Source: a virus | DNA: 64,000 bases | IMG/VR virus record: IMGVR_UViG_3300015371_000006 | Coordinates: 32,001 to 96,000 of that record | Direction: 5' to 3' (one strand) | Shown here: positions 12,823-40,705 of the stretch, piece by piece | Layout of the letters: each line of letters begins with the position of its first letter | Position numbering within the stretch: position 1 is the first letter of the stretch | Notes under the pieces: generated by a model | The model's input: only the letters and a program-made list of their open reading frames with translations | The model's database searches: none | What the model was told of the DNA's origin: nothing | Program-made: the position numbers and the translations under genes

Positions 12823-15800
12823 TTATGGCTTCAGCCCGGCCGCCTTGATGACAGCAACCAGGGTATCCGCGTTCTCGACGGCAGGATCGAGGTCAATGCC
12901 CTGGGTTGCGAGTTGCGCAAGGGCGCTCTGCACGGCGGCGGCATTCCAATCGGGGCCGAGCGACTGGGCGGCGTCCGCCAGCCGCTGGTCAGCCTCGGTT
13001 ACCTCGGGCTCGGCGTCCCACTCGTCGGCGCGGTCGACCGCCGCCTTGGCGTCCTTGTATACCTCCGGCGAGTCGTAGCTCTCGCCGGGCGTGGGCTTGA
13101 CCACCAGGTAGGTGCTCTTCGTCTTGACGATCTGCGTCCCGTTCGGCAGCGTCTCGGTGTGGCCGGGCTCGGCGTCGTTCAGCGTGGCGACTCGGTCGCT
13201 CATGTTCGGCGCGGCCGTCGGCGTCGGCTCCTCGGCGGGCGGCTCGCCGTGGTCGGCGAACGCCTTGGCCTCGATCTTCGCCGCCTTCGCGTCGGCCAGC
13301 ACCGAGTCCATGCCCCGCGCCTCCAGCTCGTTGTTGACCTGCTGGGCGGCCCACGGATCTTTGTCCTCGTAGCCGACCATCTGATCGGCGAGGCCCGCCA
13401 GCTTTGCGTCGCTCATCTTCGGGATGTTGCGGAGGTTGCCCTTCGCGGAGTAGGCGGGGCTCACCTTCTGATCGTCGCCCGGCTCGGGCTCGCCGGGGGT
13501 GAAGTCGGGAGTGGTGCCGGGCTTCGGCTGGTCGCCCAGGCCCGCCAGCGGATCTTCGCCGGAGGGCGTCGGCCCGCCCTTGTCCAGCGTCAGGTCGATC
13601 CACCCCACATCGCTCAGCGGCACGCCCTCGGCCTTCAGCGCAGTGGCGATCTCGTCGCGCACGGCGGTGTCGTTGACCTCCGGGTGGTCGGAGGAGATGA
13701 TGTCCATCGTGCCCTTGAGCATCATCTCCCGCTCGCCGGGCTCGGCGTTGACGATGGCCTTGACCATCCGGTCGACCGCCAGGTTGCCCTCGGGGCTGAA
13801 CATGCCCAGGTCCGGCGCGTCGTAGAGGGCCTTATCGGCGGCGTCGGCCTTCGCGCCTGGCTCGATGTAGGAGGCCGGTGGCGCATCCCCTGCCGGGTCG
13901 CCGCTCTTCGCGCCGACCGAGGCCACGCTCTTCTTCAGGAGGTCGTACAGGTCGTCGTCGTTTCCGGCCGTCTGCGCCGCCACGGGTGCCGGGGTGGGCT
14001 TCGGGGCGGGTTCGGGCGCAGAGGCGCTCACAGGCGCTGCCACAGGCGCAGGCGCGCCCGTGGTGAAGCCACGCGACTCCATCTCGGTCTGCACGGCCGC
14101 GTATCCGTCGGGATCGGCGTGCGCGTAGGGGCTCATGTCGGCCCACAGGTTCTTCAGCTTGCCGTCGTTCATCGCCTTGACGTTGCGGATGTTGCCCTTG
14201 GCCGAGCGCACCGGGCTCTCGGGGTTGACGGGCAGCGGGGCGGCCGGGGTGACGCTCCACTCGTCGCTGTAGTCGGGGTGCATGTCGCCGAACGCGCCAG
14301 GCGGCATCCGGTAGTGGAAGATGCGGCGCTTCTCGCCCTGGTACTTCGACGGGGCCGGGTCGGAGGTCAGGATCTCGCCCGTGGAGGGATCGATGGGCTT
14401 GGCGATCACCCAGTTGCCGTTCGCCTTGTGGACGACGTAGCCGTAGCCGTCGTGGATGAACTTCGTCCCGACGGGCACCTCGCCCAGCTCGGTCGAGGAG
14501 GTGTTGGGGGTGAAGCCGTCCGGCACGCTGCCGGGGCTCGCCTGCCCCAGCTTCAAGCCGCCCAGCTCGCTCAGCACCTTCGCGCTCGCCTTCTTGTCGG
14601 AGCCGTTCGCGTACTCATCCCAGGCGGGCAGCAGCACAGCGCTGACGTCCGGCGGTGAGCGGTCGAGTGCGTCGGCGAGCATGACCGCGTTGACGGGGAA
14701 GGTCTGCACCCGGCCGGTGACGCCGCCGGAGCTGATGTTGATTCCGTCGGGCGTGCGCTCCAGCTTCGCGCCGCTGTTGAGCTGCGTCTCGCCGAAGCGA
14801 TCCAGCTCAGCGCCGTTCTTCAGCAGGGTCACCTCGTACTGCGTGCCGACCGCCAGGCCGGGGCTGTACTGGCCGTAGTTCGGGTCGAGCATGTCGGCCG
14901 CTGCGTCGGCGATCTCGTTGTCGAAGCGGTCCTCGTCGCTGTAGAGGCCCCGCGAGGTGCCCTTCGGGTTGCCGTGCACGGTGTCGAGCGCGTCCTCCAG
15001 GCGCTGCAGCAGATCGACGTACTCCTGCGCGCGGTAGTCGTCGTGCTCGGCGACCACCGGGAACCAGTCGCTCTGCACGTCGCCCGCCAGGTCGTCGATG
15101 AACTCGCCGTCGGCGTCCTTGCCCTGCGCCTCCACCTTGGCGATCTCCGTCTCCCACAGCTTCGGGCTCGCCTGGCCATCCTTGCCGAAGATGACGCCCG
15201 TGCCCTTCGCCAGCGGGTGCACGCCCAGGCCCACGCCCTCGTCGACGGCGTCGGGAAGCTTCATCGGGTCCGGCCAGGGGTTCGCCTTCGCCCAGATGCC
15301 CGTGCCCTCGGCCTCCTGGCGCTTCGCCCGCGCAGCGTCGGCCTTGTTCGCGGCGGCCTGCGCCTTCGCCCCGCCCGCGAGGAAGCCGGGGTAGCCGGGG
15401 CTTTGCTGGCCGGGCAGCCGGTAGAGCTGGGCGCGGCCGTCCTTCCACACCTCGACGACGCCCTGCGCCTCGTTGACGTTCACCTCGTCGGCCTTCGGGA
15501 AGTGCTTGGCCTTCAGGTCGGCCTGCAGCTTCTCGCGGCTTTGGGCGGCCTTCGGATCGACCACCTTCATCGCCGGGCTGCGCTGGCCCATCTTGCGGTC
15601 GTCGATCTCGCGGTCGACGGCCTCGTCGCGCGCAGCTTCGTTGGCGAGTTCGTCGTGCAGCTCAGCGACGTCGTCGGGCGTCTTCGCGTCGCCGAAGACG
15701 AAGGTGCCCTCCAGGTCGGTGATGACGTAGCTGTGCTCGTCGTCGCGCGCGATGACGGCGTTCGGTGCGACCGCCACCTCGTCGCCCACGGCCAGCTTCT

Positions 15801-20346: not shown

Positions 20347-20374
20347 GTCGTCATCGTAACCGCGCCCTGGGCGG

Positions 20375-20584
20375 CTACCCCGGTTGGACTTCGATCCGTA
20401 GCGGCGTGTTGCCCGGTGCGGTGACGTGGATGATCCGGCGGCGGTGCTCGGTGCGGACCTCGCTGATCTTGATATCGGGGTCGGCGACCAGCGCCTGCTC
20501 GACGCCACTGAAGCCCCGGTTCAGCCGCTCGCGCGTGTCAGGCGGCGACGAGGAGGTCTTCGTCTCGGGCGTCGATGAGTCCAT
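20375..20584 (-). CDS. hypothetical protein
   Basis: Short ORF in the operon. Confidence 0.45.
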   Translation of the reverse strand: MDSSTPETKTSSSPPDTRERLNRGFSGVEQALVADPDIKISEVRTEHRRRIIHVTAPGNTPLRIEVQPG

Positions 20585-20837
20585 CGATGAGGGCGTTGAT
20601 GTCGAGCGGGGAGCCGATCCCGAGGTAGCAGCTCTCCCACGCCGGTCGGGTGTCTAGGAGGACGCGCTTCCATTCATGGCGGTTCTCCTTGTCGTGGGGC
20701 CAGACGATTCGTTGCTGGGCGATCCGCCAAGCGTGGTCGAAGGCGAGGCCCTTGCGCTTCATCCGCACCAGCTCCTCGCAGAGCTGTCGGGGCGGGGGAA
20801 CGCTCCTACGCCTCGCCTGTTCCAGCTCCGTTGCCAT
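20538..20837 (-). CDS. hypothetical protein
   Basis: MATELEQARR...; GGAGGG upstream. Confidence 0.55.
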   Translation of the reverse strand: MATELEQARRRSVPPPRQLCEELVRMKRKGLAFDHAWRIAQQRIVWPHDKENRHEWKRVLLDTRPAWESCYLGIGSPLDINALIDGLIDARDEDLLVAA

Positions 20838-21012: not shown

Positions 21013-21028
21013 GTGCGCGAGATAGTAG

Positions 21029-21229: not shown

Positions 21230-21255
21230 CCGGCCAGCGTACCGTTCTCGTCGGC

Positions 21256-21789: not shown

Positions 21790-21791
21790 GG

Positions 21792-22196: not shown

Positions 22197-22211
22197 GTTG
22201 TCCTCTCTGCC

Positions 22212-22721: not shown

Positions 22722-22798
22722 CGGGAACCTCCTGTAGTTGGTCGGGCTACTGCTACAGATGGTAGCACATGACGACGGCGGTGATACGGTGGTGCGCA

Positions 22799-23600: not shown

Positions 23601-24632
23601 TCATGCAGCGAGCACCAGGTCCAGACCCTTCTGCTTGAGGTTCTGATCCTCGAAGCTCCGCTGCACCTGGTCGGTGCGCTTCGTGACCCGCCGGAAGTGG
23701 TCGGCGAATTCCGCGACCGCGTTCGCGGCCACCCACTTCGTGCCGGGGCTGTTCCCGGTCGTGTCGCCGTCCGGCGCGGTGCCGTTGAAGAGCGCGTTCA
23801 GCAGCTCGCGGTTGTCCTCGCGGTTGCGGATTGCGATCTTGCGGTCGGCGTCGCGCATCTCGGCCTCCTGCGCCTCGGTGAATCCGATCAGCGGCCGGAC
23901 CACCTTCTTGTCGAAGCGGTCGGGGCTCATCGCCTCGCGGGCGAGTTCGTCGCCGAGCTTCTTCATGGCGGCGTTCCAGTTGAGGGTGATGTCCATGACC
24001 TTGCGGGCCTCGCCCAGCTTCTCGGCCATGTCACCCGTGTGCCGGAACTTGTAGGTGCGGGGGCTGTTCTCCGACTTGGAGAGCGCCCATCCGAGGGTGT
24101 TCGCGCAGACGATCCGCACGTCGGTCGCGGCAGCAGTGACCGCCATCGAGCCGTCGTGCGAGTTGGCGCAGTAGACGTAGCGGGCGATCTCGTCGCCGCC
24201 GATCTCCACCAGCTCGGGGATCTTCGCCAGCACCCACACGCGGCGTCCGTTGCCGAGGCTGCCTGCCGTCTCGATCTCGATCTCGCCGCCGAGCAGCGCG
24301 TCGAGCCAGAGGAAGGCGTCGCGGTTCGGGACCACCTTGTAGTCGTTGCTGACGATCCCGAGGACTTCCGAGGTGTCCTCGCGGATGTTCGCCCGCCAGT
24401 TCGCAGCCTGCACGAGGTTGCTCTCCATCTGCGGGACGAAGATGCCGGGCATGCCCTCCTGCGGGGGGAGCGCGACGAACACGTCGCCCTGGTTGACGGC
24501 CCAGGTCAGCTCGGCCTTCTCCAGCGCCTCGTCGATGGACTTCGGATAGTCGTCGAGGACGACGCCGAGTCCGTGCCAGGGCATGCTGCGGACGCTGAAC
24601 ATGCTGTCCGCTTCCTTGATTCCGTGAGCCAT
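23601..24632 (-). CDS. DUF932 family phage/plasmid protein (TIGR03299-like)
   Basis: PWHGLG...LGIVSNDYKVVPN...ETAGSLGNGRRVW...NSHDGS...VRIVCANTL; CCGACCAAGGAGG at 24638-24650. Confidence 0.9.
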   Translation of the reverse strand: MAHGIKEADSMFSVRSMPWHGLGVVLDDYPKSIDEALEKAELTWAVNQGDVFVALPPQEGMPGIFVPQMESNLVQAANWRANIREDTSEVLGIVSNDYKVVPNRDAFLWLDALLGGEIEIETAGSLGNGRRVWVLAKIPELVEIGGDEIARYVYCANSHDGSMAVTAAATDVRIVCANTLGWALSKSENSPRTYKFRHTGDMAEKLGEARKVMDITLNWNAAMKKLGDELAREAMSPDRFDKKVVRPLIGFTEAQEAEMRDADRKIAIRNREDNRELLNALFNGTAPDGDTTGNSPGTKWVAANAVAEFADHFRRVTKRTDQVQRSFEDQNLKQKGLDLVLAA

Positions 24633-24832
24633 GTTGGCCTCCTTGGTCGGTTGACCGGACAGCCTACCAGCAATTTCTTACGGCTATTTATTACTGCGGC
24701 TCAGGGTGCCCGCCAGCCGGATCGGGCAGGCGCGCGCGTGTGAGGTCGTCTCGCGGTCGCAGATGCGGCAGTAGTCGCCGAGGCCGGGGTAGCGGCGGTG
24801 GCCGTTGATCCAGATCCAGTAGAACGCGTCGC

Positions 24833-28067: not shown

Positions 28068-31000
28068 TCACGAGTCCAGCTCACGGACCCGGTTCACGCC
28101 GCTGACCAGGAACGCCTTGCCGGTCGCGGGCCGCCAGATCAGAACCAGGCCCCCTCCGGCGGCCTGCACGTAGATGTATTCGTTGCCGCCCTTGTCGCGG
28201 AAGCCCTGGCCCGGCATCAGATCCTTGACGTGGGGGTGCTTGTATTTCCCGCCGCTTCCCCATGCGGATTTGTAGCCCAGCAGATCGGTCATCGGGACGC
28301 CGCTGATGCTCCCGTGCTCGGCGAGGATCTTCGCCAGCAGCGCCTTCGCGTCGCCGCCCGTGTTCGTCTCGGCCTCCACGTCGGGGCTGCTCAGCTCGGT
28401 CGCAGCCTTCGGCTGCACGTCGTCGAGCTTGGTCTGGTCGCTGACCACCTGCAGCAGCCCGCTCTGCAGATCCTTGACGATCACCTGGTTGCCCTGGCTC
28501 GGGCCGGGCGGGGTCTTGAAGGCGACCACCTGGAAGGGATGCCCGCTCGCGTTCTCGAACTCGTACTCGGGTTCCATGTCGTAGAGGTAGCCCCCGGTGA
28601 ACGGCGTCGTCTCGGTTTCGGCCTCCGGGTCGGCGGCGGGCGGTTGCTCGGGGAGGTCCGCCAGCGGCGTGCCGGGGCTCACCTTGGTCATCCCGGCGGC
28701 GTCGGGGCCGGAAGGCCCCACGACCTTCTCGCCGTTCGCCAGCTCGGCCACGACGATCCACGGCTCGCCATCCGGGCCGGTGAAGGTTTCGCCGCCCTGC
28801 AGCTGGTCGATGTTCGTCGGCTCGGGGTCGGGCGGTGTCGGCGCGACGCTGATCTTCGCGGGCTTCAGCGCCCCGACCACTCCGGTGATCGTTGACTCGG
28901 TGCCGTTCTGCAGGCTGACCGCCTTCTCGTGGTCCGACTTCATGAACTTGTAGCCGCCGTATTCGTAGGTGCTGCCGATGGGCAGGTCGTCGACGGCGAG
29001 GCCTTCGGTGTTGTCGTAGGTCGGCGGGTCGTGGTCGGGGATCGTCTGCGTCGGCGTCGGCGTCTGTGGCGGCAGCGCCATGCCGCCGGGCGGGCCGGGC
29101 ACAAAGCCCTCTTCGAACTTCAGCGTCTCGCCGGGGTCGCCGCTACTCCCGAAGCTCTTCTTCAGCAGCGTCACCTCGACCTGTCCGTTGACCGGGCCGC
29201 CCTGCACCTCGTAGATCGAGCCGGAGGCCATCTTGATCTGCGTCCCTGCGGGCATCTCGCCCAGCGTGGCGGTGGTCGGCTGGAAGGCCGCTTCGGGGAA
29301 CGGCGCGGCCAGGCCCTCGGGCGGCTCCACGCTGATCGGCGTGCCCCCTCCCGCCGGGGTCGCCAGCGCCTTCACGTCCTTGGCGTAAACCATCTTCAGG
29401 CCGCCCGTGGTGTAGACGCCCTTGATCCCGGTGCCCGCCACCTGGTTGTCGGTGATCTTGACCGTCTGCCCGTCCGTCAGCTCCACGACGTCGCCGTTCG
29501 CCAGCGAGTTGAAGAGTTCCTCCTGGTCGGCGGTTGCGATTCCCGCCTCGGGCGCTGGCCAGGTGATGACGGTCGGGTTGTCGACCGTCGTGTCCATCGG
29601 CACGGTGCCCCCGGTCGCCACGTTCTCCAGGTCGACGAAGCCGTCGAAGTTGTTCGTCACCTTGTAGCGGACGTCCTGGTAGATGACGGTCTGCCCCACC
29701 GGGATGTCGGCGAGCTTCACCTGCGCGCCGGTGGCCCCCGGAGGTGCCGCAACAGCGCCCGGCTCGTCTACGTCGGTCATCTGCGGCCCCGGCTGCGTGA
29801 CCACCTTCTCCAGGCTGACCGTGTACTCCTTCTGGCCCTTCTGGATCAGCAGCGCGTCCTTGCCCGACGGCGTGGTCGCTGATCCGACCACGGTGCCGGT
29901 CCAGGTCTTGCCGTCGGCGCGCTTCATCTCGACCGTCTGCCCCAGCTCGTAGCCGTGGTGCTTGATCGGCTCAGCGGGTGCCATGTCCAGGCCCTGTCCC
30001 GGCGGCGGCGGGGCGTCCATCGTCTCCTCGGGCAGCTCGCGCACGCGCAGCTTTCCGCTCACGGTGAAGTTCGTCTGCCCGTCGGAGATGATCGGCTCGT
30101 CGCCCGCGACCTGCAGCTTGAACAGCTTTCCGGTCTTGTCGCGGAACACGGTCCCGGCGGGCAGGTTCTTGATCCGCTCGTGCTTGTAGGCCCCGCCCGG
30201 CCCGTGGGAGGACTTGTAGGGCACCAGCTGGTCGCCGATGTCGAACAGCGCGTCCTCGGCCTGCTCGGACTGGTTGAGGCTCGGCGACGTGGTTGCGGGC
30301 TTGAGCGCAGGGTGGCTTTCGCCGTAGGTGACGTTGTCGCTCGGGGCGGGCATCGTCGTCTTCTGCGGGTTCAGCGTCCCGTCCTCGCGGATCAGGTTGC
30401 CGGTGATCTGCTTCTCGCCCGACTCGCCGACCGACACGCCGGTCACCTGCCACACCTTGCCGTCGTGGATGAACGTGTCGAAGTTCTCCAGCTGCTCGGC
30501 TTGGACCGTGTCGCCCGGCTTCAGCTCGGAGTGCGGGGTCAGCGACTTCGGCGGCCCGGACTTCTTGACCTGGCTCTCGTTGGTCGGGCTCTCGTGGTCG
30601 TGCCCCACGCCACCGTCTGCCGACTCCAGGGACTTGACCTTCTTCTTCAGCAGCGCCTTGCCGGTCTCCCCGGTGTCCAGGTTCGTGAAGTAGACCCAGC
30701 TCTCGTCCTTGCTGTCCACGCGGTAGGGGCGGATGCGCGAGCCCCGGCCGCCGTGGAACAGGTCGCCGTCGGCGAGGTCGCCCATCTGCGTGGACTTGCC
30801 GATCTTCCACGCCTTCGGGTTGAACAGGCCCTGCAGCGCGTCGTTGTCAGGGTCGATCTGCACGACCTTCGCGCCGGGCTTGGCCTCCTTGATCGAGACG
30901 ATGCCGTTCTTCTTGACCGAGGTGACGACGTGCTTGGCCCCGTTGTAGGCCAGCGTCATCCCCTTCTCCGGCGGCTGCTTCAGCTTGAAGTAGCCCTCGA

Positions 31001-32939
31001 TTTCGACCAGCTGCACGGCCTTGTAGTCGCCGTTGATGGTGCCGGTCAGGCCGCTGTTCAGGTCTTGGATCTGCGTCAGGCCCAGCGTGGGCGTGTCCTT
31101 GATCTCATACGGCGTCCCGTTGACCTTGAACTTGTCGCCGATCTGCATCTTGGCGATGGGCTTCGCGTCGTCGGTGCCGAATTGCCAGGCGGCCGGGTCG
31201 AAGCCGCTCTCCTCGACCTTGGTCGGCGGCACGTTGCCCAGCAGCTTGTAGTTCGGGTAGCCCTCTTGGAAGGCCATCTCCTCGCCGTTGTATTTCAGCC
31301 CGCCCTCGCCGTCGGGCACGATCTTGTGGATGCGCAGCCCGCTGGGGCTGGCAGGGTCGGCGTTGACGTAGTAGAGGGTGCCCTGCAGGCCCATCAGGAA
31401 GTCACCTGCGCCCGCGTGCGACTCGGCTGCCTCCAGCGCCTCGGGGTTGCCGTTGGGGTCGAGGTTGTCGAATGGCAGCCCCAGCTTCCCCAGCTCCTCG
31501 GGTGACCAGCCGGACTTGATCTCGGGCAGCTTGTCGGCGTACTCCTCCAGCGCGGTGATCGCAGCGGGCGGTGGCGGCAGGTGCGCCGAGCCCTTCATCT
31601 TGATCTCGGCTGCGACCGGCGGCACGGGCAGCGGCTCGCCGCCTCGGACAGCCGACAGGAACATGCGGATCGTGTCGCCGCCTCGGGGCTGCTTGGTCAT
31701 CTTCCCCAGCCACTGGCGGTAGCCGGACGGCACCTCGTCGTTGTGGTAGCTGATCGCCTGGTCCGGGTCCAGCACCATCTGGTAGGGGATCGCCACCTCC
31801 TGCTCGCCGTGGCAGCTCCCCTGCGCGTTCTTCATCGGCCCCGAGACGTAGGTCGCCATGACGATGTGGCGCATGCTGACCGCCGTCGCCACGCCGGTCT
31901 GCTTCTTGCCGATGGCCTCGCTGTTGAAGCTGCAGCTCAGGCCGCTGAACACCCTCGCCTTGCCGCTGATGAACTTCTTCCACCACGAGGTCGGCTTCGC
32001 CGGGCTCAGGTAGCCGGACTTGTGGATGATCGTCAGGTCGGGGCTGCGGGTGCGGTTGTAGAGATCCCAGGCGTAGGCGTCGCGGATCAGGCCCTGCAGC
32101 TCCATCGCCTGCTCGCGCTTGGCCCGCGCGGACTCCAGCGTCTTCGGGTTCTTCTCGTGCATGTTGATGATCCCGGCGAGGCTCAGCGACATGCCCGACG
32201 AGCTGCCGTACTGCGAGCTGAAGCCGCCGCTGACGAGCTGTCCGATCTCGGCGTCGTAGCCCTGGTACGCCTTCGTGATCAGCTGGCTGGCCTTGAGCTT
32301 GCCGTACTCGCCGTAGCGCTTCTGCAGGTCGGTGTAGTGGAGCTGCTCGGCACGACCGAAGGCGGCCCACTCCTCGGCGGTCAGCGCGCTGTTGGGCGGG
32401 ATCGGGATCGAGGGGTCGTGCGTCTTCGGGTCGACGTGCGGGTTGACGGCCGTGACCGTGGACTTCGGGCCGCCCGCGTGCTCGCCCTTGCCGCCGATGA
32501 CCGCCACGGGCTTAGCCCGCTTCGCGCCGGTCAGCTCCTGGGCGGGGCCGCCGGTCGTGGTCGGGTCCAGCACCACGGTCTTCGCCACCTCGCCGCCGGT
32601 CTTGTGGGCGATGATCTGCCCCTGCCCGTCGGGCCCCGCGACGATGTTGGCGATCTCGTAGGTGTCGCCCTTGAAGTCGAAGGTCTGCCCCACGCGCATG
32701 AACTTGCCGCCCAGGCCGCCCGGCGTCCCGGCGGGCCAGCGCGGGTGCAGGTGCTCCTCGACCGACGTCCACGGTCCGGCGGCCGCCTCCTCCAGGTTCT
32801 CGCCCTCGACGTCGGGCTCTCGGGGCTCCGGCCCACGCTCCCTGCGCCCACCCTGCTCGGCCGCTGCTCGGATCAGCCCCAGCGGGTCGTCGGAGTTCGC
32901 GTCGGGGGGCGTCGGCAGCGGAACGAGGACGGTCGTCAC
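28068..32939 (-). CDS. giant modular protein: ADP-ribosyltransferase-like domain plus >12 small beta-barrel-like repeats
   Basis: HPRWPAGTPGGLGGKF near the N-terminus; ART-like motifs IIHKS / GLSCSFN / GEQEVAI; repeats of the form (D/E)LxxGxxFxxxGxxYxV. Start GTG 32939. Confidence 0.7.
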   Translation of the reverse strand: MTTVLVPLPTPPDANSDDPLGLIRAAAEQGGRRERGPEPREPDVEGENLEEAAAGPWTSVEEHLHPRWPAGTPGGLGGKFMRVGQTFDFKGDTYEIANIVAGPDGQGQIIAHKTGGEVAKTVVLDPTTTGGPAQELTGAKRAKPVAVIGGKGEHAGGPKSTVTAVNPHVDPKTHDPSIPIPPNSALTAEEWAAFGRAEQLHYTDLQKRYGEYGKLKASQLITKAYQGYDAEIGQLVSGGFSSQYGSSSGMSLSLAGIINMHEKNPKTLESARAKREQAMELQGLIRDAYAWDLYNRTRSPDLTIIHKSGYLSPAKPTSWWKKFISGKARVFSGLSCSFNSEAIGKKQTGVATAVSMRHIVMATYVSGPMKNAQGSCHGEQEVAIPYQMVLDPDQAISYHNDEVPSGYRQWLGKMTKQPRGGDTIRMFLSAVRGGEPLPVPPVAAEIKMKGSAHLPPPPAAITALEEYADKLPEIKSGWSPEELGKLGLPFDNLDPNGNPEALEAAESHAGAGDFLMGLQGTLYYVNADPASPSGLRIHKIVPDGEGGLKYNGEEMAFQEGYPNYKLLGNVPPTKVEESGFDPAAWQFGTDDAKPIAKMQIGDKFKVNGTPYEIKDTPTLGLTQIQDLNSGLTGTINGDYKAVQLVEIEGYFKLKQPPEKGMTLAYNGAKHVVTSVKKNGIVSIKEAKPGAKVVQIDPDNDALQGLFNPKAWKIGKSTQMGDLADGDLFHGGRGSRIRPYRVDSKDESWVYFTNLDTGETGKALLKKKVKSLESADGGVGHDHESPTNESQVKKSGPPKSLTPHSELKPGDTVQAEQLENFDTFIHDGKVWQVTGVSVGESGEKQITGNLIREDGTLNPQKTTMPAPSDNVTYGESHPALKPATTSPSLNQSEQAEDALFDIGDQLVPYKSSHGPGGAYKHERIKNLPAGTVFRDKTGKLFKLQVAGDEPIISDGQTNFTVSGKLRVRELPEETMDAPPPPGQGLDMAPAEPIKHHGYELGQTVEMKRADGKTWTGTVVGSATTPSGKDALLIQKGQKEYTVSLEKVVTQPGPQMTDVDEPGAVAAPPGATGAQVKLADIPVGQTVIYQDVRYKVTNNFDGFVDLENVATGGTVPMDTTVDNPTVITWPAPEAGIATADQEELFNSLANGDVVELTDGQTVKITDNQVAGTGIKGVYTTGGLKMVYAKDVKALATPAGGGTPISVEPPEGLAAPFPEAAFQPTTATLGEMPAGTQIKMASGSIYEVQGGPVNGQVEVTLLKKSFGSSGDPGETLKFEEGFVPGPPGGMALPPQTPTPTQTIPDHDPPTYDNTEGLAVDDLPIGSTYEYGGYKFMKSDHEKAVSLQNGTESTITGVVGALKPAKISVAPTPPDPEPTNIDQLQGGETFTGPDGEPWIVVAELANGEKVVGPSGPDAAGMTKVSPGTPLADLPEQPPAADPEAETETTPFTGGYLYDMEPEYEFENASGHPFQVVAFKTPPGPSQGNQVIVKDLQSGLLQVVSDQTKLDDVQPKAATELSSPDVEAETNTGGDAKALLAKILAEHGSISGVPMTDLLGYKSAWGSGGKYKHPHVKDLMPGQGFRDKGGNEYIYVQAAGGGLVLIWRPATGKAFLVSGVNRVRELDS

Positions 32940-33137
32940 CCGTCCATTGTGAACCCCGCGCAAGCGGGAGGGCGATTCAGACCACGGAGACGATGCCCTG
33001 GTGGCGGCGTTGCCACCAGCGCGCGCCCGCGCGCGTGAGCGCGAGGTGCGCGATCTCCTCGCCATAGGCGGTCGGCATCACCACCCGCCAGCGCCAGGGT
33101 CTCGGGTCGCCGCAGCAGGTGCGCTCGACCCGGCCCT

Positions 33138-33503
33138 TCACTTGACGGCTCTCCAGCCCTTCGGCTTCTCGCCGCCCTTCGGCGCGTTGGCCTGGGCGTT
33201 TCGCAGCTTCCGGTTCCAGCTGGTGTGCTTGTGGCCGCCCCACTCGGTGTAGCGGTCCGCCTCGCTGCGCTTGAAGGGCAGTCCGCTGAAGGCCCGGCGG
33301 AACTTCGCGTTGCCGTCCATCTGCTTCGGCTGGGGGATGTCGCCCAGCGCATGCGACTGCGCCTTACGCGAGCCCCGGCGCAGGTGCCCGACGTTGCGCG
33401 ACTCCATCTTCTCCTCCACAGAGCGAGTGCCCTGGCGACGGTTGGCACGGCGCTGTTGGCGGTGGGTCAGGCCCCGGCCGCCCCGCTTGGCCCGGATGCT
33501 CAC
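33138..33503 (-). CDS. highly basic small protein
   Basis: Arg/Lys-rich; CCGACCGAGGAGG leader at 33512-33524. Confidence 0.6.
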   Translation of the reverse strand: MSIRAKRGGRGLTHRQQRRANRRQGTRSVEEKMESRNVGHLRRGSRKAQSHALGDIPQPKQMDGNAKFRRAFSGLPFKRSEADRYTEWGGHKHTSWNRKLRNAQANAPKGGEKPKGWRAVK

Positions 33504-33541
33504 TTCGCGTACCTCCTCGGTCGGGTGTTGACCGGGGCAGC

Positions 33542-36500
33542 CTAACGGGGCTTGACGACGGCGTCGACCACGGTCGCCCCGTCGATGAGCTTGCTGCCGG
33601 TGATGCGAATCGACGTGCGCCGGGGCAGCACCACGCGGCCGGGCGTCGGATCGGTGACGGTGTCGAGCGTCGAGGGCATCAGCGCGTGCGCTCCGGTCGG
33701 GACCGTGAGCCGCAGGGTGACCACGCCGGGCGTCGGCGCGTACTGCGTCTCGGCGTTGAGGTAGCTCTTCTCGGTCATCCACTTCCCGGCCAGCTCGCCT
33801 GCGTTGTCGGCGTTGATCTTGCTGTCGGCGGGCAGCGGGACGTAGGCGTAGAAGTCCTCGTCGACTCGGGTCACCCTGTCGCCCAGCAGGGCGTCCAGCT
33901 GCGCCACGGTGCCCTGCGTCTCGGCGTCGGCGGCCGCGCGCTTGGCCCCGGAGCGCAGGTGGGCGTCCACCACGTCGTGGCCCTGGCCCAGGTAGTGCTC
34001 CATCGCTGCGTCCTCCTCGGGGTAGGTCTCCAGCGATGCGTCGCGCGCGCTGAATTCGTCGAGCACCTCCTCGCCGCTCAGCGGCTCGGGGATCTCCTCC
34101 TCGCCTCGGCTGTAGCGCCCCAACCAGGCGACTCGGGCCTTGAGGTTCTCGCGGACGCGCTCGCGCATCTCCTCATCGTCGAACGGGGCCGCGTCCACCA
34201 GCGCGTCGATGCGCTCGGGGGTCAGACGCAGCTCGGCGTCCTTGGCGGCGGCCCGCATCCCCTCCTCGGTGATCGCCATCCGCGTCCACGCCTGCCCGCC
34301 AGGCTTGTTCATCGTCCACAGCTCGGTCGGCACCGGCCCGAACGGCTTCGGCCCGCCCATCGCCCGGTACTCCAGGGTGCCGCCCTGGTCGAGTCGGATC
34401 GGGGTGTCGCCGTTCCACAGCACGTTGTCCTGCGCCAGGCCGACCACGTCCCAGTTGCCCAGCAGCGCGTCGGCGACGAAGCCGTCGGCCAGCGTTTCAT
34501 CGGCGTGTTGCCACTGGCGCTCCTCGCCGTCCACGAGCGGGTAGGTCAGCGCGCGGGTCTTGCCGAACTTCGGCACGTTCACCTCGGTGTAGCCCGCGTT
34601 CGGGACGGTGATCCCCAGCTCGCGGTAGATCGAGTTCGCCAGCAGCTCGGTTGCCACGCGGTCGCGGTTGCCCTTGTACGTCTTCACCAGCCAGCGGCGG
34701 CCCTCGGCGTCCTCGGCCATCCGCGCCCCGTTCGACCCTCCTGCGGGCTTGACGTCCTTGAGCTTCGTGGCGGTGTAGTCGGGGATGCCCTGCACCGGCT
34801 CGGGCGGGGCTTCCATCTCGGAGCGCTCGACCTCTTCGGTGCGCTCGGGCTTGCCGCCGTCCCAGCTCGCCTGCATCTTCGCCAGGAACGCCTTCATCCC
34901 CGGCAGCTCAGGTGGGCTGGCCTGGCCTACTCCTCCGGCTTCTCCTCCGGCTTCTCCTCCGGCTCCGGGTCCGACTCGTAGCGCAGCGTCTCCCCCTCCA
35001 GGTACTCCGCTGCGTCCGGCGGGAGATCCGGGGCTGGCGGCGGCTGCTCCTTCGGGTCCATCGAGGCCCATCCTACCCTGCGCCAGGAAGCCGTCCATCT
35101 TCTCGGCGTCGAGAATCTTCAGCTCGCCGCCCACATCCTTGTCGGCGATCAGCTTCGCGGGCTCGCCGCGCGGCACGTCGGTGTCCCACACCCGCAGCCG
35201 CAGCCAGGGGAGTTCGTCGTCGTACTCGGTGAAGCGCTGGGGCACGCTGCGGTAGGCGTTGTCGACGATGTGGTCGGGCACGGTGCGGCCGCTGCGCTCG
35301 GCGCGCTCGGCCACGCGGACCTTGCCCTTTTCGTGGGGGAGGTGGGCGACGTCGACCTCCACGTCGTAGCCGTCGGCGTGCGCCTGCTCCAGCTTCTCGC
35401 GGAAGCGCCCCGCGCCGGAGTTGCCGACGCCGTCGATCAGCACGTCGAGGCCCCGGTTGAAGGCTCGCGCGCGCAGCGTCCGGGCGATGATCGAGGACTC
35501 CTCATGCACGCCCGCGCCGCTGTAGGGGTCGCGCGCTTCGATCATCGCCTGGTACTCGGGCAGCTTCTCCTTGATCGCGTCGGGGTTGACCTCGACCATG
35601 CCGGTGGCCTCGGCGCTCAGCATCGAGGACTTGCCCGAGCCCGGTCCGCCTGCGGTGAACGCCGCGCGCGGCTTGCGGCCCGAGGGTGGTTCGTGGCCTT
35701 CCAAGAAGCTGTTGATGATCTCCTCGTGCAGCGCCCGGCGCTCGTCGGCGTAGACCCGGCCGGTCGGGGTCATGCGCGACCACTTCGCCTCGGTGTCGAC
35801 GGCCTCGCCCAGCACCTCATTGGCCGTCGGCCCCTTCTCCACCTGCAGCCGATCCTCGGGGCGCTCGGCGGGGCTGGCCTGGCCCATCATCACCGAGCTG
35901 AGCGCATCCCAGGCGTTGGCTGCCAGCTGCTCCTCTGAGGCCGCGTCGGCGTCACGGATCGCCTCCAGGGCGCGCACCTCCTCTTCGTCTCGCAGCGTCG
36001 TGATCGCCGGTTCGACCTCCTCGCGGCTCAGCCCGTCAACCGAACCCACGTCGCGCTTGACCGCGTAGGTGCGCGTGCCGTCGCGGTCGCGGGTGACGCT
36101 TACCTCGCTGCCGTCGCTCAGGGTGATCGTCGATGCGTCGGGCTGACCGGGGTAGAAGTCCAGCTCGTCGAGGTTCCTGCGGTCGCGGTCGCTCAGCGGC
36201 CTGCGGCCGAAGCCGGTCGGGCGGGGGCGGTCCAGTGCGCCCCGCCAGGCGGCGAGCGCAGGCATCGGCCCCGCTGCTCCGAGGGTCTGCACGCGCTGGG
36301 CATAGGGATTCCACGCCACATGGCGCGACAGGTGCAGGCCGGGGCTGGCCTGCCCGCCTTGCGCCTCCAGGGATTCGCGGTCGAGCAGCAGCTCGTTCTC
36401 GCCCGCCAGCTTGCCCAGCCACAGCGCCTTGGTCCCGGCGGGCACCGTGACCTCCTGAACGTCGCCGAATCGCTCGGCATCAGCCTTTCGCGTGCTGGTG

Positions 36501-39500
36501 CTCACGAACGGCCCGCGCAGCTTGCCGTCGTCGGCCCCGCCTCGGTAGACCGTGACCGCCTCGGGGAGCGCCCTCATCGCCCTGCGCAGCATCTTGACCT
36601 GCGGCCCCAGCTTGTACTCGCGGTCGAGCGAGGGGTCGTAGAGGATCTCGTCGGGATCGTCCGACTCTTGGAACGGCGTGCTGTCAACGATGTACAGCTC
36701 AGCCGCGTTCTGTTGGCGCGGTCCCAGCTCGGGCGCATTCGCGTCGAGCATCTCCTCAGCCGCCTTACCCTTCAGTCCGGGGCTGGCCTGGCCAGTCGCC
36801 TTACTGATTGCGGCCTTCACCAGCGAGTCGTCGAGCGCCCGGCGCTCCTCCGGCGTGCGGTCGGGGTCGTCGTCGGCGTGCTGATCCATCGCGTCGGCGA
36901 TCAGCGCCTCCAGGTCGGCGGTGTCCTCGCCGGGCTCGACCCAGCCGTTGAGCATCGACTTCGTCAGCTCGTCCTGCACGGCCTGGCGCTGCTCAGGGGT
37001 CAGCTGGTCGAGGCCGGGGCTGGCCTGGCCTGCCATCGCGCGCAGGCGCGGGTCGTCTGACTGGGACAGGTACTCCTGCTTGCGGGCCTGCAGCGAGTCG
37101 GCGATCTCGCTGCCCACCGGCTCGCCGTCGCGGGTGTAGCGGGCCTGGTGGCCGTAGTACGCCTGCGACCAGTTGTAGCCGTCGGTAAGCCGGTAGCCGT
37201 GGTCGATGACCTTGCCCTTGTTCTGCGCCTCCAGCTCGCGCATCAGCTGGGTGGCGATGCCCCGGCGCTGGAACTCGGGGATGACCTCGATCTTGTCGAT
37301 GCCGATGTCGGCGTTGGCCTCGCGCGCTTTCTTGCCGATGGCGGGCCGGTAGCGGCTGTAGGTCAGCTTGCCCACCTCCCTGCCGTCTACCTCGGCCACC
37401 AGGCCGTCGAAGTATTCGGTGTCGCCTCGCTTGCGCGGCTTGATCTCGGCGGGGCTCAGCTGGCCCGACTTGACCGCGTCGTCTACCTGGGGGTTCCAGG
37501 CGTCCAGGGTTGCGGGCGGACTCGCCTGCCCCAGCGCGAGCTTCGTGTCCGGCATCAGGCCCTTGCCTGCGGGCTGGGCGACACCGGAGCGCACGGCGAT
37601 GCCGTAGCTCTCGGCGTTGCTCATCCGGTTCGTGGTCGCGTAGCGCTTCCGTGAGCCGTCGGGGCGTTCGATCAGCACGCTGTCGCCGCGCTTGCCTCGG
37701 GTGATCGTCGAGCCATCGGCGGCCTGCAGGCTGTCGCCTCGCTGCAGCGCTCGGACCTTGCGGATCAGCGCCCGGCGCGGGTCGGAGTAGTTGTGCGGGT
37801 CGAAGCTGCCGGGCTCGATGTCGAGCGCCTCGGCGTTCGGCTCGGCGATCCCCATCTCCTTCATCGTCCGCTTGACGAAGACGCGGTCCTTCTCCTTCTC
37901 GGCTTCGGGCAGGTCGGCGTAGGGCTTCAGCAGCTCCGGCTGGTCGGCCTTCGCCCAGCTCTGGTTGCGGTCGATCCAGGCGTCGTGCACCTCGGAGGCC
38001 AGCCGCTCCATGTCGAGCGCACCCTCCTCATCGCGCATCCGGGTGATCGCGTCGTAGGCCGACGCCGCGCCGTCGCGGTTCTCGGCTTGGAACTTCTCGG
38101 GCAGCTCGTCGTAGGTCATGTCGGCGATGTCGATGGTCCCGCCCCCATAGGGCTTGGGCCGGGGCTCGTAGTTGCGGTCCTTGCGCCACTGTTCGTGGGC
38201 CTGTGCCGCGACCCTCTCTACGACCTTGTCTCGCTGCATGGCAGCGCCTGTGAGCGGTTGTTCGGGCGCGCCCTCTGCACCCTGCCCCTCCGGGGCGTCG
38301 CCGCCTCTGGCGCGCTTACGGCTCTCCGCTCCAGGGCGGGCTCGGGACACGTCGAGGACGCTCGACTCGCGCAGCAGCACCATCTCGCCGTCCTCGGTGA
38401 GCGCCTCGGCCTTCCAGCCCAGCGCGTCGTCGTCCTCGACCTTGCGCAGCTCGGCCACGGTGATGTCGCCGTTGTTCTGCTTGATCCGCACCACATCGCC
38501 CTCCGCGACCGGGCCGGTGATGTTGTTGCCCTTCAGGTTGCGCCGGGGCGGATCGGCCAGGAACTCCACGTCGTCGGGGTCGGGGTAGCGGGTGACGGTG
38601 TCCACGATCTGGCCGTTGTGGTCGCGCAGCTTGACCTCGACCTCGGCGTACCAGCGCCCGTCCTCGCCCACCATCGCGTCGGTGACCACGCCCTCCCAGG
38701 GCTCCTTGCGCCCCGTCACGCGCACGCGCGCGCCCGCGCGGATGCGCATGCGGTGGTCGGTGTAGTTGGGCTGGCGCAGCACCTCCGCTCCGGCGGCCCC
38801 CGGCCCGGCGAAGTGCTCGACCGTCCTCGCCATCAGGTCGCGCGCTCGCGCCTCGCCCTTCTCGGGGGTGACGCCCTGCGCGCCTGCCAGCAGCCCGCCG
38901 AGGATCTCGAAACGCTTCTCGGGGTCGGCGCTGAAGGCCAGGTTGTGCAGCAGCTCGCGGCGGTTCTCCAGCGGGACGTGGGCTTCGTCGAGCAGGAGCC
39001 CGAGCGCTGCGCGCTGGGGCAGGTAGGTGCCCTGGGCTCGGATGTCGTCGGGCTTGCGGCCCAGCCAGCGCAGGACGTCGTGCTGTCCGTTGCGCTTCAG
39101 CAACTCGACCGCCCACTCGTGAGCCATCTCCTCGGTCAGCGCCTCGTCGAGGCTGAAGTGCTCCGGCTGGGCGAAGGTCTCGGGGTTGATCGGGTTGACG
39201 CCGTGGGAGGCCTCGTGCATCGCCGTGCGGTAGGCGTTGTAGACGCCCGCTGCGGTGTCGTCGTCGAGCCGCCGCTTCTCCACGCGGGCGGCGTGGGCGG
39301 CCTGCAGGTGCACCTGGGCGGCCCGGCCGACTTGCACCTCGCCGTCCCAGCTGCGAAAGCCGCCCGTGTCCTCGTCGGCTTCGTTGATGCGGATCGACTT
39401 CAGCACCACCTGGCGGCCGTGCGTGTCGCCGATTTGCTGTGCAAGCCCGGCCACTCCGGCGGCAAGACCGGAGAAGTCCTCTGGTGCGCCAGCCTTCTGG

Positions 39501-40705
39501 GCCGCCATATTGCCTGCAAAGGGCACAGGAACTGGAGAAGACGTCGGGCCCCCGGCTCCATCCGGCACATCCGGCACATCCGGCGTCCCAGCAGGCATCC
39601 CGCCGGGTGCCGCCTGGCCCCCGACCTGCGTGGTGACCCTTGCTGGGATCGGGTCCGACCCGCGCTGCGCGAGCTTCGGCGCGTCCGTGCCGTGCAGGAA
39701 CCGGAGCACGTCGTTGAGGCTGATCCTCGGCGCAAAACCCCCGCGTCTTGGGCGGAAACGGCCGCCCCACACCGTGCCCTTGGCGAACCGCTCGTCCCAG
39801 GCGACCTCCTCCATGTCGAGCACGAGGTCTGCGGGTGGGACATCGGTGCCCTCGGGCTGGGACATACCGCCGGACATATCCCCAGTCAGAGACACGAGAA
39901 AGTCACCATTTGCAGGGGTTTCGCCGTTCGAGCTGAGGGACATCTCCAGGGACATCTCGGTGACACGTTCGGCCAGTAGGGCCTCTTGCAGCAGGCCGTA
40001 TCGCTCAGCGATCTGCTGGGCGCGCCGGTCGGCCGCCTCGGTGTCGGGAGCCTCGGCTCCCATCAGCCCCATGTCGTATGCCTCGTCGTGCGTGAGCAGC
40101 TCGCAGCGGCAGCCCGTGTGCGTCGGCGGGTTGATCCGGTCGAGCACGCTCCAGGGCCACCAGCCGACCGTCGCCATCGCCAGGCAGTCCGGGGTGTGCT
40201 CCTTGACCGCTTCGCTGAGGTGCCAGAACGCGCCCTCGGGGCTCAGCCTGCGGACCATGCCCCTGCGCGCGGTCGCCTGCACGCGAGCGGCCGCCGCCTC
40301 GTGGTGTGCCTCGGTGAACCGCCGCTCGCGCTCCAGCACCCGCTTGACCGCCGCCTCGGGTTCGTCGCGCTGCAGGGCCGCCGGGATGTCGCGGCGCATC
40401 CGCTCCTCCATGCGCCGGTAGAACTCGACGTCGCGCTCCTGCTCGACCCGCGCGGCCTCGGCCAGCTCGGCATCGCTCACGTCGGCGCGTGCGAACTCCG
40501 GTCGGATCGCCTTGACGATCCAGTCCGCGCCCTTGCTGCGCCGCCTCAGCGCCGCGACGGCCGCCCCGATGGCGGCCCCGGCCTGTCCCGAGGCCACCTC
40601 GCCCCCAGCAGCGTCGTCGTCGCCGGAGGCTGCGATGACGCCCCCCGCTGCGGCCGCCGCCAGGATCGCCTCGGTGTTGTCGTCCTGCTTCGCGCGCGTC
40701 GGCAT
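33542..40705 (-). CDS. MuF (minor head protein)-fused polyvalent effector protein: zincin, SH3-like, RyR, GNAT, ART, zeta toxin, HipA/PI-kinase-like, degenerate ART
   Basis: PPTHTGCRC (MuF); HEASH...DEALTE; AHEQW/VHDAW...PYADLPEAEKEKDR; VIPEFQRRGIATQL; VYRG/FVSTS/GENE; GGPGSGKS; GGSN..LVK..E...DALLGNWD...N...LDQGG. Confidence 0.85.
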   Translation of the reverse strand: MPTRAKQDDNTEAILAAAAAGGVIAASGDDDAAGGEVASGQAGAAIGAAVAALRRRSKGADWIVKAIRPEFARADVSDAELAEAARVEQERDVEFYRRMEERMRRDIPAALQRDEPEAAVKRVLERERRFTEAHHEAAAARVQATARRGMVRRLSPEGAFWHLSEAVKEHTPDCLAMATVGWWPWSVLDRINPPTHTGCRCELLTHDEAYDMGLMGAEAPDTEAADRRAQQIAERYGLLQEALLAERVTEMSLEMSLSSNGETPANGDFLVSLTGDMSGGMSQPEGTDVPPADLVLDMEEVAWDERFAKGTVWGGRFRPRRGGFAPRISLNDVLRFLHGTDAPKLAQRGSDPIPARVTTQVGGQAAPGGMPAGTPDVPDVPDGAGGPTSSPVPVPFAGNMAAQKAGAPEDFSGLAAGVAGLAQQIGDTHGRQVVLKSIRINEADEDTGGFRSWDGEVQVGRAAQVHLQAAHAARVEKRRLDDDTAAGVYNAYRTAMHEASHGVNPINPETFAQPEHFSLDEALTEEMAHEWAVELLKRNGQHDVLRWLGRKPDDIRAQGTYLPQRAALGLLLDEAHVPLENRRELLHNLAFSADPEKRFEILGGLLAGAQGVTPEKGEARARDLMARTVEHFAGPGAAGAEVLRQPNYTDHRMRIRAGARVRVTGRKEPWEGVVTDAMVGEDGRWYAEVEVKLRDHNGQIVDTVTRYPDPDDVEFLADPPRRNLKGNNITGPVAEGDVVRIKQNNGDITVAELRKVEDDDALGWKAEALTEDGEMVLLRESSVLDVSRARPGAESRKRARGGDAPEGQGAEGAPEQPLTGAAMQRDKVVERVAAQAHEQWRKDRNYEPRPKPYGGGTIDIADMTYDELPEKFQAENRDGAASAYDAITRMRDEEGALDMERLASEVHDAWIDRNQSWAKADQPELLKPYADLPEAEKEKDRVFVKRTMKEMGIAEPNAEALDIEPGSFDPHNYSDPRRALIRKVRALQRGDSLQAADGSTITRGKRGDSVLIERPDGSRKRYATTNRMSNAESYGIAVRSGVAQPAGKGLMPDTKLALGQASPPATLDAWNPQVDDAVKSGQLSPAEIKPRKRGDTEYFDGLVAEVDGREVGKLTYSRYRPAIGKKAREANADIGIDKIEVIPEFQRRGIATQLMRELEAQNKGKVIDHGYRLTDGYNWSQAYYGHQARYTRDGEPVGSEIADSLQARKQEYLSQSDDPRLRAMAGQASPGLDQLTPEQRQAVQDELTKSMLNGWVEPGEDTADLEALIADAMDQHADDDPDRTPEERRALDDSLVKAAISKATGQASPGLKGKAAEEMLDANAPELGPRQQNAAELYIVDSTPFQESDDPDEILYDPSLDREYKLGPQVKMLRRAMRALPEAVTVYRGGADDGKLRGPFVSTSTRKADAERFGDVQEVTVPAGTKALWLGKLAGENELLLDRESLEAQGGQASPGLHLSRHVAWNPYAQRVQTLGAAGPMPALAAWRGALDRPRPTGFGRRPLSDRDRRNLDELDFYPGQPDASTITLSDGSEVSVTRDRDGTRTYAVKRDVGSVDGLSREEVEPAITTLRDEEEVRALEAIRDADAASEEQLAANAWDALSSVMMGQASPAERPEDRLQVEKGPTANEVLGEAVDTEAKWSRMTPTGRVYADERRALHEEIINSFLEGHEPPSGRKPRAAFTAGGPGSGKSSMLSAEATGMVEVNPDAIKEKLPEYQAMIEARDPYSGAGVHEESSIIARTLRARAFNRGLDVLIDGVGNSGAGRFREKLEQAHADGYDVEVDVAHLPHEKGKVRVAERAERSGRTVPDHIVDNAYRSVPQRFTEYDDELPWLRLRVWDTDVPRGEPAKLIADKDVGGELKILDAEKMDGFLAQGRMGLDGPEGAAAASPGSPAGRSGVPGGGDAALRVGPGAGGEAGGEAGGVGQASPPELPGMKAFLAKMQASWDGGKPERTEEVERSEMEAPPEPVQGIPDYTATKLKDVKPAGGSNGARMAEDAEGRRWLVKTYKGNRDRVATELLANSIYRELGITVPNAGYTEVNVPKFGKTRALTYPLVDGEERQWQHADETLADGFVADALLGNWDVVGLAQDNVLWNGDTPIRLDQGGTLEYRAMGGPKPFGPVPTELWTMNKPGGQAWTRMAITEEGMRAAAKDAELRLTPERIDALVDAAPFDDEEMRERVRENLKARVAWLGRYSRGEEEIPEPLSGEEVLDEFSARDASLETYPEEDAAMEHYLGQGHDVVDAHLRSGAKRAAADAETQGTVAQLDALLGDRVTRVDEDFYAYVPLPADSKINADNAGELAGKWMTEKSYLNAETQYAPTPGVVTLRLTVPTGAHALMPSTLDTVTDPTPGRVVLPRRTSIRITGSKLIDGATVVDAVVKPR
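34927..35061 (-). CDS. nested out-of-frame 44-aa acidic peptide (candidate zeta-domain antitoxin)
   Basis: MDPKEQPPPAPDLPPDAAEYLEGETLRYESDPEPEEKPEEKPEE*; 41/44 codons end in G/C, versus 18/45 in the host frame; TAGGAT 8 nt upstream. Confidence 0.65.
   Translation of the reverse strand: MDPKEQPPPAPDLPPDAAEYLEGETLRYESDPEPEEKPEEKPEE

Follow-up and report, generated by a model that had tools for sequence, protein, structure and literature searches.

We propose that an uncultivated virus, IMGVR_UViG_3300015371_000006, encodes a cassette-array polyprotein system in which the pentapeptide G-[Q/M]-x-[S/T]-P serves as the junction signal. The stretch of DNA analyzed here (the window) comprises 64,000 nucleotides, bases 32001-96000 of one 111,596-bp viral contig (G000; 69% G+C), and its minus strand encodes two giant proteins, a MuF-like/zincin protein (carrier 1) and a peptidoglycan-binding (PG) protein (carrier 2), in which copies of the motif stand between one module and the next (Table 1). 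In the proposed system the virion-module carriers, namely the MuF-like/zincin giant, the PG giant and, in relatives, the family of a neighboring 1665-amino-acid (aa) protein, would hold a variable run of unrelated cargo between conserved ends, and the cargo would include a GNAT acetyltransferase, ADP-ribosyltransferases (ARTs), a zeta-type kinase and many orphan modules of ~60-180 aa. One phage-specified reader would recognize the motif in all carriers of a genome, with a specificity that drifts between lineages, and this reader is most probably an endopeptidase releasing separate effectors inside the head or, after ejection, in the host. The gluzincin of the MuF-like giant is the leading candidate, and its substrates would be the chain that contains it and, in trans, the remaining carriers. 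The motif is non-random, module-delimiting, peptide-selected, genome-consistent and tied to module arrays. From these properties we infer cleavage of the chain, together with its bond, its enzyme and its timing, and a protease cleavage code is the best-supported mechanism. We consider it likely that the motif is cut by one enzyme or another, and we put the probability that the zincin is the enzyme cutting there at about one half.

The non-random character of the motif is clear from its counts. A sequence-only reading of the window had listed six GQASP copies in carrier 1, and all six lie on the minus strand at exactly the positions it gave, although it overlooked a seventh GQxSP copy (GQLSP, 37451-37465). 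The 13 copies that it assigned to carrier 2 are 12 GQxSP and one YQASP between 14533 and 17760, and the gene starts that it used for the two giants (40705 and 20346) agree with the database gene calls. Composition-preserving shuffles of the two proteins, which contain 7 GQxSP (carrier 1) and 12 plus the YQASP (carrier 2), gave means of 0.025 and 0.045 copies per protein and a maximum of 2 in 20,000 shuffles. The genome-wide count against expectation that had been suggested as a check reveals a strong excess confined to the two giants, with only one further copy, GQASPG in the tape-measure protein, among the ~120 open reading frames of the contig that are supported by third-position G+C (GC3). 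That copy lies at residue 500 in a Gly/Ala-rich stretch of a protein encoded outside the window (G000:C1:17005-21174, minus strand; L095:1006-5175), and it may be a chance occurrence or mark a tail protein that is read by the common factor.

Carrier 1 is organized as a MuF-like N-terminus, a gluzincin, beta-rich and RyR-like regions, five variable cassettes and an end module consisting of a kinase-like domain and an ART. It thus combines several unrelated effector domains in one chain (GNAT, ART, zeta-like kinase, kinase-like and C3-like ART), and its gene sits between the portal and capsid genes. The segment contents proposed from the letters alone hold up, with GNAT, ART and zeta toxin recognized by Pfam and the kinase-like and C3-like ART domains by AlphaFold2 and Foldseek, while the acidic and 157-aa segments could be assigned to no family. 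The invariant residues of the kinase-like domain in the end module come from an alignment; in the AlphaFold2 model of this module, the ART matches C3-type ARTs in Foldseek with an E value of 1e-9. The identification of the N-terminus as MuF was sustained in one respect, as the P-x-H-P-x-C-R-C signature is present, but not in another, as there is no match to the Pfam MuF model. PF04233 is not detected in residues 1-1060 at E <= 1 or in the six-frame translated genome at E <= 10, and NCBIfam likewise gives no match. In a profile of the N-terminal region, PPvHpgCrC does line up with HPNCRC in two proteins annotated as PF04233, although the scores are weak (3-5 bits).

The positions of the motif coincide with the edges of these modules. 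Every Pfam match in carrier 1 (GNAT, ART and zeta toxin) falls between two motifs, and the BLAST matches to metagenomic homologues begin precisely at motif residues 1061, 1453 and 1929 (numbered from the TTG at 40711). In one such homologue, P0005, the GNAT, orphan and end modules occur in an order different from that in carrier 1, and the 157-aa orphan cassette matches it from the junction-4 residue to the next motif, elsewhere in that protein. When match starts in the array zones of 19 giants were compared with random points, 24.6% of the former and 5.6% of the latter were no more than 5 aa from a motif. The proposal that the motifs fall in linkers is supported for junction 6, the single site modeled, which an AlphaFold2 model of the last 510 residues places in a 58-residue stretch with a predicted local distance difference test (pLDDT) score of ~31, the first helix of the well-folded end module being predicted to begin ~6 residues after the motif. 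The disordered stretch is the Gly-rich linker that follows the zeta cassette (34927-35075).

Carrier 2 is built on the same plan of conserved N- and C-terminal parts and a variable middle. Its conserved N-terminal part (three PG_binding_1 domains, a zinc ribbon and a DUF6582-like region) is followed by an array of 11 cassettes and a conserved C-terminal part of 574 aa, and its homologues have the N- and C-terminal parts in common with it, but not the array. The cassettes are 59-181 aa in length and mutually unrelated; none matches a Pfam family, and no free-standing homologues of them were found among shorter proteins, in Pfam or in the protein atlas. The 1665-aa neighbor contains no GQxSP in this phage. 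In the related genome G001 its homologue begins with an extension of 430 aa that is divided by four MASP motifs, the last of them 4 residues ahead of the region of homology to the 1665-aa protein, and hence relatives have a third carrier in this family.

Nine metagenomic homologues of carrier 1 retain the N-terminal third and the end module, while their cargo differs (NUDIX, 2H phosphoesterase, zeta, GNAT and ART). Just ahead of the end module, the local motif variant is present in every array-bearing relative and in none of the array-free ones. A module bounded by motifs on both sides is common to the PG giant P0019 and the MuF giants P0005, P0006 and P0007 at 45-49% identity, and hence cargo moves between carriers along with its junctions. 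The expectation that homologues would show modules swapped between conserved motifs was thus realized, the motif being conserved with variation, and Pfam, BLAST and the relatives together bear out the view of the motif as a module-boundary mark common to otherwise unrelated giants.

The variation between relatives is itself ordered. De novo motif counting recovered GQxSP in P0009 and P0011, x-Q-A-S-P in P0006, GMxSP in P0005, P0007, P0008 and P0010, and M-A-T-P-T in L005. In a logo of 196 instances, G is found at position -1 in 65%, followed by Q (52%) or M (48%), A (61%), S (91%) or T (9%), P (100%) and then G or A, and Pro is enriched a few residues to either side of the motif. P0005 mixes M and Q types, and hence at least one reader accepts both. 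Within a genome the carriers agree. In the phage studied here all 20 of 20 copies are of the Q type. G001 (80.9 kb) is of the M type, with 11 M-x-S-P in its MuF-like giant, 24 junctions in its 3794-aa PG giant (19/24 being GMxSP, with no Q-x-S-P copy) and the four MASP in its 1665-aa homologue. The MuF giant P0006 and a PG giant of the P0018 cluster, which are assigned to one European Nucleotide Archive (ENA) contig on the basis of an equal length of 35,081 bp and a common source, both use x-Q-A-S-P, with a relaxed first position. In G005 (126 kb) the motif is G-[DE]-K-G-[DG], with 14-15 copies in a 5280-aa MuF-like giant and 5-7 in the PG giant, where ~0.1 are expected. The complete relatives G003 and G004, and also P0012, have short proteins with no arrays and no motif, even before the end module. 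A motif that is common to the unrelated proteins of a genome, specific to that genome and bound to arrays is what a single trans-acting reader predicts, and these sequence patterns point to one such reader per phage.

This behavior extends across the zincin family. Nearly all of its 117 representatives at 50% identity are in proteins of 1000-5900 aa with a common N-terminal region, and 34 of the 117, all of which were scanned, contain a lineage-specific punctuating motif. These motifs include GLxSP, GKxSP, PxSPG, ExSPGR, SPGT, [RK]xDPG[TVI], GVEKP[DE], GEKGD, GEKSGG, GMGAGK and TGKANP, each with 4-21 copies versus 0.01-0.2 expected and each restricted to one clade of the zincin tree. Polyvalent proteins fetched by means of the kinase-like domain alone have mostly ordinary poly-Pro or TPAP linkers. 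A scan of IMG/VR for the zincin added one short contig, with APQSPG, and two metagenome scans and one viral scan for further [RK]xDPG genome pairs brought up nothing beyond array-free relatives and a fragment of 1.7 kb. In several relatives an intact motif (RGGQRSPA or a similar form) separates the MuF-like part from the zincin; at this site carrier 1 has the decayed forms RGSDPIP and then GGQAAPGG (residues ~340-385; 39560-39700, minus strand), and thus the N-terminal 1060 residues of carrier 1 would remain one piece. A different punctuation is seen in a 2325-aa protein with the kinase-like domain from IMGVR_UViG_3300049927_000070 (L026:7943-14917, plus strand), which contains six LPxGT where 0.07 are expected.

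The gluzincin-like domain of carrier 1 is the sole peptidase-like HExxH domain in the genome. Its AlphaFold2 model has a pLDDT of ~97 across 225 residues, and H499, E500, H503, E523 and E527 are invariant in both a 9-sequence and a 14-sequence set. Nearly all of the top 50 structural neighbors of the model are gluzincins, including M1 aminopeptidases (Z 8.6-7.5), thermolysin (6.7) and ArdC (6.3), although the best of them (Z 8.6, with a root-mean-square deviation of 4.5 A) is in a range that can arise by chance. The model has no Foldseek match at E <= 0.001, and the domain has no match in Pfam, a library that should include the MPTase-PolyVal model. Prediction of a complex of the zincin with a 40-aa junction peptide gave a score of 0.01 versus a mark of 0.32, and we use this neither way.

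The sequence-only reading had named this zincin as the candidate protease, and while the confidently predicted gluzincin-like fold and its invariance in relatives favor that choice, several observations weigh against it or against the proposed system as a whole. The domain is equally invariant in relatives that are free of the motif (L006, L007 and P0012), so it must have another role or other substrates. It has no match among 50,697 GenBank phage records and no cultured relative, and in the alignment we saw no zincin residue that tracks the motif class. The scissile bond is not guessable from known zincin preferences, since the position after Q/M is variable and a Pro follows the Ser. The tape measure, though no head protein, contains one GQASPG, which either arose by chance or is hard to account for as a substrate. 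Finally, the junction DNA of the PG giant of G001 and, more mildly, of the present phage is more uniform than the peptide needs.

Of the explanations that compete with cleavage by the zincin, the one that fares best, though we think it improbable, retains the motif as a cleavage signal and assigns it to another enzyme, either a prohead protease in the head or a host protease after ejection. The PG giant has no zincin of its own, and hence an enzyme acting in trans is needed in any case, and there is precedent in known prohead proteases, which use one short motif to process many packaged proteins. A 429-aa protein encoded outside the window (L095:13229-14515) is a weak candidate for a prohead protease plus scaffold: its gene is just upstream of the decoration and major capsid genes, which is the usual protease-scaffold position, its C-terminal half is coiled-coil-like, and its language-model look-alikes fall in Peptidase_S77 (0.94) and Mu-like protease (0.93) clusters. 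However, sequence searches of PHROGs, Pfam, NCBIfam and the PDB gave no protease match for it, the S78 family (PF04586) has no match in the genome, and [QM]x[ST]P is absent from the major capsid, the portal and the 429-aa protein itself, which are the kinds of protein that prohead proteases normally cut as well. A host enzyme, for its part, poorly explains Q in one phage and M in a close relative.

Somewhat less probable still is a motif that remains uncut and acts as a docking site or hinge between modules, where it would be read by a chaperone, a component of the head interior or portal or the ejection machinery, or would be needed for unfolding and passage through the tail. The linker position, the agreement within a genome and the drift between lineages would fit any single trans-acting reader, and in phage N4 a protein of 3500 aa is packaged and ejected without being cut (PMC5512222). 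On the other hand, the linkers of related polyvalent proteins are low-complexity Pro- or Thr-rich runs with no fixed pentapeptide, a docking site at each of 13-24 boundaries is without precedent or obvious use, and the cargo enzymes, which have unrelated targets, would function better apart.

The third alternative is that the junction serves mainly at the level of DNA, as a short in-frame homology for cassette recombination with the peptide as a by-product, and we rate this as very unlikely. Synonymous variation at the junctions had been put forward as evidence of selection on the peptide; that selection is supported by the relatives, but the codon variation within the present genome turned out to be limited (Ser is AGC in 18/21 copies and Pro is CCC in 16/21). 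In the MuF-like giant of G001, M-x-S-P is kept while the codons are scrambled, with both Ser codon families in use, and among relatives Q (CAG) changes to M (ATG) and S to T, the first of these taking two base changes and still giving an equivalent peptide. The middle codon is free while G, Q, S and P are held, and distant lineages maintain punctuation of quite different sequence. In support of a DNA-level role, cassettes are reordered and moved between carriers exactly at junctions, up to 15-18 identical bases recur, and, beside the AGC/CCC bias of the present phage, the DNA of the 24 junctions in the PG giant of G001 (L092:810-12191, minus strand) is nearly fixed, mostly as GGC ATG GCA TCG CCC, with Ala as GCA in 17/18 and Ser as TCG in 19/25 against backgrounds of 38% and 21%. 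Hence part of the conservation reflects recent growth or exchange of the arrays at junctions, and from this pattern the in-frame junction would seem to be a recombination joint as well, a role that may act alongside a function of the peptide.

Least probable of all, by our estimate, is that the kinase-like module phosphorylates the Ser/Thr-Pro of its own protein, and that this is either all that the motif does or an ATP-dependent switch permitting cutting only in the host cell. It is true that the core of the motif is [S/T]-P, that the catalytic-type residues of the kinase-like module are all invariant, that Asp-Pro resembles phospho-Ser-Pro such that either might be what the reader recognizes, and that among 35 motif-defined giants (among P0020-P0129) the kinase is present in 21/24 of the S/T-P type versus 1/11 of the D-P or other types; but the zincin tree shows only 3 kinase changes and 2 motif-type changes, which leave 2-3 independent pairs (sign test p = 1), so the association may be plain descent and is retained as a lead. 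As the general explanation offered in the sequence-only reading it fails, because the GEKGD, GMGAGK and [RK]xDPG motifs of related lineages contain no Ser or Thr (GEKGD, GMGAGK and GEKSGG being without a phosphorylatable or acidic equivalent) and because the kinase module is also found in motif-free relatives and in many unrelated phage proteins.

Three further candidates were rejected outright. A coding-independent DNA site is ruled out, since the DNA pattern GGNCAGNNNAGCCC has 17 matches versus 0.27 expected and every one is an in-frame copy in the carrier 1 or carrier 2 gene. Derivation of the motif from internal repeats fails because no giant has off-diagonal self matches, so that no repeated domain contains it. 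Initiation of translation within the gene at the Met of M-type motifs does not work as a general reading, since the CAG of the Q type is no start codon.

Among the closest known systems are the polyvalent proteins, which were defined by Iyer, Burroughs, Anand, de Souza and Aravind with the prediction that embedded metallopeptidases release their domains (Iyer et al., 2017; PMC5512222). Like the carriers described here, these are giant late-gene chains of 2-15 unrelated effector domains (ART, GNAT, 2H, NUDIX, kinases and lysozyme/PG-binding), often on a MuF-type head protein and often with an HExxH peptidase. In contrast to the present case, that account names no junction or cleavage motif and nowhere uses the word 'linker'. 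The carrier 1 zincin appears from its model to be no less similar to M1/thermolysin-type gluzincins than to ArdC. The novel elements are the fixed junction peptide, the way in which all carriers of a genome agree in it and the array of orphan mini-cassettes on the PG carrier.

In T4, phiKZ and SPN3US, morphogenetic proteases process numerous packaged proteins, with cleavage at a short motif ending in Glu, such as A-X-E in SPN3US (PMC10052503), the sites being L/I-x-E for T4 gp21 and A/S/G-x-E for phiKZ gp175 and SPN3US gp245. The proposed system would resemble them in having one enzyme, many packaged substrates, a consensus of 3-5 residues, several sites per substrate and products that are ejected (PMC10052503). 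The morphogenetic enzymes, however, are assemblin-fold serine proteases that cut after Glu, mostly trim N-terminal propeptides and process the capsid and portal, whereas the motif described here is absent from the capsid, portal and scaffold candidates, separates full-size cargo and occurs in a genome whose sole clear peptidase is a zincin.

The polyproteins of RNA viruses are cut after Gln at protease-specific junctions, by the picornavirus 3C protease and the coronavirus main protease among others. The parallels are the unrelated units, a conserved junction peptide at each boundary, Gln or sometimes Met ahead of a small residue, and co-evolution of the sites with the protease, although there is no kinship of sequence or fold, the carriers are minor virion components, the protease would be of another class and the processing of the carriers is predicted from sequence. 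MuF-toxin fusions and minor head proteins of the SPP1 gp7 type usually have one variable C-terminal toxin domain and no repeated junction motif. Carrier 1 is like them in its gene being downstream of the portal, in the H-P-x-C-R-C signature and in its C-terminal toxin-type domains, and unlike them in its repeated junction motif and its lack of a Pfam MuF match. Literature searches on the motif strings returned unrelated uses only, and searches on MuF, toxin and proteolysis found no description of such junctions. By analogy, the system would work like the polyvalent, morphogenetic and RNA-virus cases and would differ from them in its motif, its probable class of enzyme and its interchangeable cassettes on several carriers.

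Polyvalent proteins are among the largest and least understood of phage proteins, and whether and how they are disassembled has been an open prediction since 2017. The present analysis supplies a candidate cut site, a candidate protease and natural variants (GQxSP, GMxSP, MATPT, GEKGD and [RK]xDPG) for cross-tests, such that the question is testable in a simple expression system without an isolate. If cleavage at the motif is correct, it provides a rule for parsing giant proteins into functional units, exposes hundreds of orphan cassettes as candidate injected effectors or anti-defense proteins and offers possible orthogonal pairs of protease and site as tools. A broader reading, which is tentative and in its entirety has the odds against it, is that these proteins represent a widespread, undescribed grammar of punctuated effector polyproteins, packaged by >100 uncultivated phage lineages, whose lineage-specific cut-site peptide co-evolves with a dedicated carrier-borne gluzincin. 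In that joint reading the cassettes would be interchangeable and would include runs of a dozen-plus orphan mini-proteins, which might be anti-defense factors, the junction would be a recombination joint, and cutting at S/T-P would possibly be licensed by the co-packaged kinase and host ATP.

Table 1. Coordinates of the carriers, their modules and junction motifs, and other genes of the window (window numbering).
Feature	Position	Strand	Remark
Carrier 1, MuF-like/zincin giant	33542-40705	-	2387 aa from ATG 40705, frame open to 40711; gene call P0004
MuF-like metal-binding signature	40103-40198	-	H172, C176 ... H198, C201, C203; PPTHTGCRC; invariant in 9 giants
Gluzincin-like metallopeptidase domain	38810-39487	-	candidate protease; HEASH 39203-39217; E523, E527 39131-39145
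GQASP, junction 1	37517-37531	-	ends conserved N-terminal 1060 aa, starts GNAT cassette; P0005 BLAST matches begin here
GQLSP, extra copy	37451-37465	-	22 aa past junction 1; Pfam GNAT match begins 19 residues on
GQASP, junction 2	37016-37030	-	GNAT cassette / acidic 79-aa cassette
GQASP, junction 3	36779-36793	-	acidic cassette / ART cassette
GQASP, junction 4	36341-36355	-	ART cassette / 157-aa orphan cassette
GQASP, junction 5	35870-35884	-	orphan cassette / zeta-toxin-like P-loop kinase cassette
GQASP, junction 6	34913-34927	-	precedes conserved end module
Conserved end module	33545-34912	-	kinase-like (invariant K, E, D..N, D.GG) + C3-exoenzyme-like ADP-ribosyltransferase
Carrier 2, PG giant	12823-20346	-	gene call P0016
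Carrier 2 array	14533-17760	-	13 junction motifs
YQASP	17746	-	carrier 2
GQRSP	17464, 17161, 15574	-	carrier 2
GQASP	16936, 16654, 15841, 15163, 14533	-	carrier 2
GQHSP	16669	-	carrier 2
GQWSP	16111	-	carrier 2
GQQSP	15397	-	carrier 2
GQYSP	14860	-	carrier 2
1665-aa neighbor	28068-33065	-	no GQxSP
Portal	45726-48014	-	upstream of carrier 1, same strand
Large terminase	50197-51927	-	gene order of G000
1231-aa protein	3850-7542	-	TX13-type repeats
478-aa protein	8288-9721		concanavalin-like lectin domain
Non-structural genes within head region	23604-24677, 44745-45047, 54657-56201, 52086-52928	-	

The phage is an uncultivated, high-GC myovirus. Its minus strand carries the terminase, the portal and the two giants with their 1665-aa neighbor in the window and, outside it, genes for a DNA ligase, the 429-aa protein, decoration, major capsid, tail sheath, tube and chaperone proteins and a tape measure of 1390 aa. 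The terminase is only ~25% identical to Herelleviridae-type phage terminases and, as the zincin also lacks a match among GenBank phages, the lineage is known from metagenomes alone. A search of genome collections found a single array-free relative, in a metagenome-assembled genome (MAG) of Baekduia sp., which is a weak hint of an actinobacterial host. Among the other genes, the repeat region of the 1231-aa protein matches the TX13 'MVPLGDSxSHS' repeat model (E 5e-12), and the adjoining 478-aa protein has the lectin domain; located between the giants and the capsid genes, the two may be fiber or receptor-binding parts. The head region is also interspersed with non-structural genes, which encode a DUF932 protein, a HARE-HTH protein, an N6/N4 DNA methylase and a GH26-like protein.

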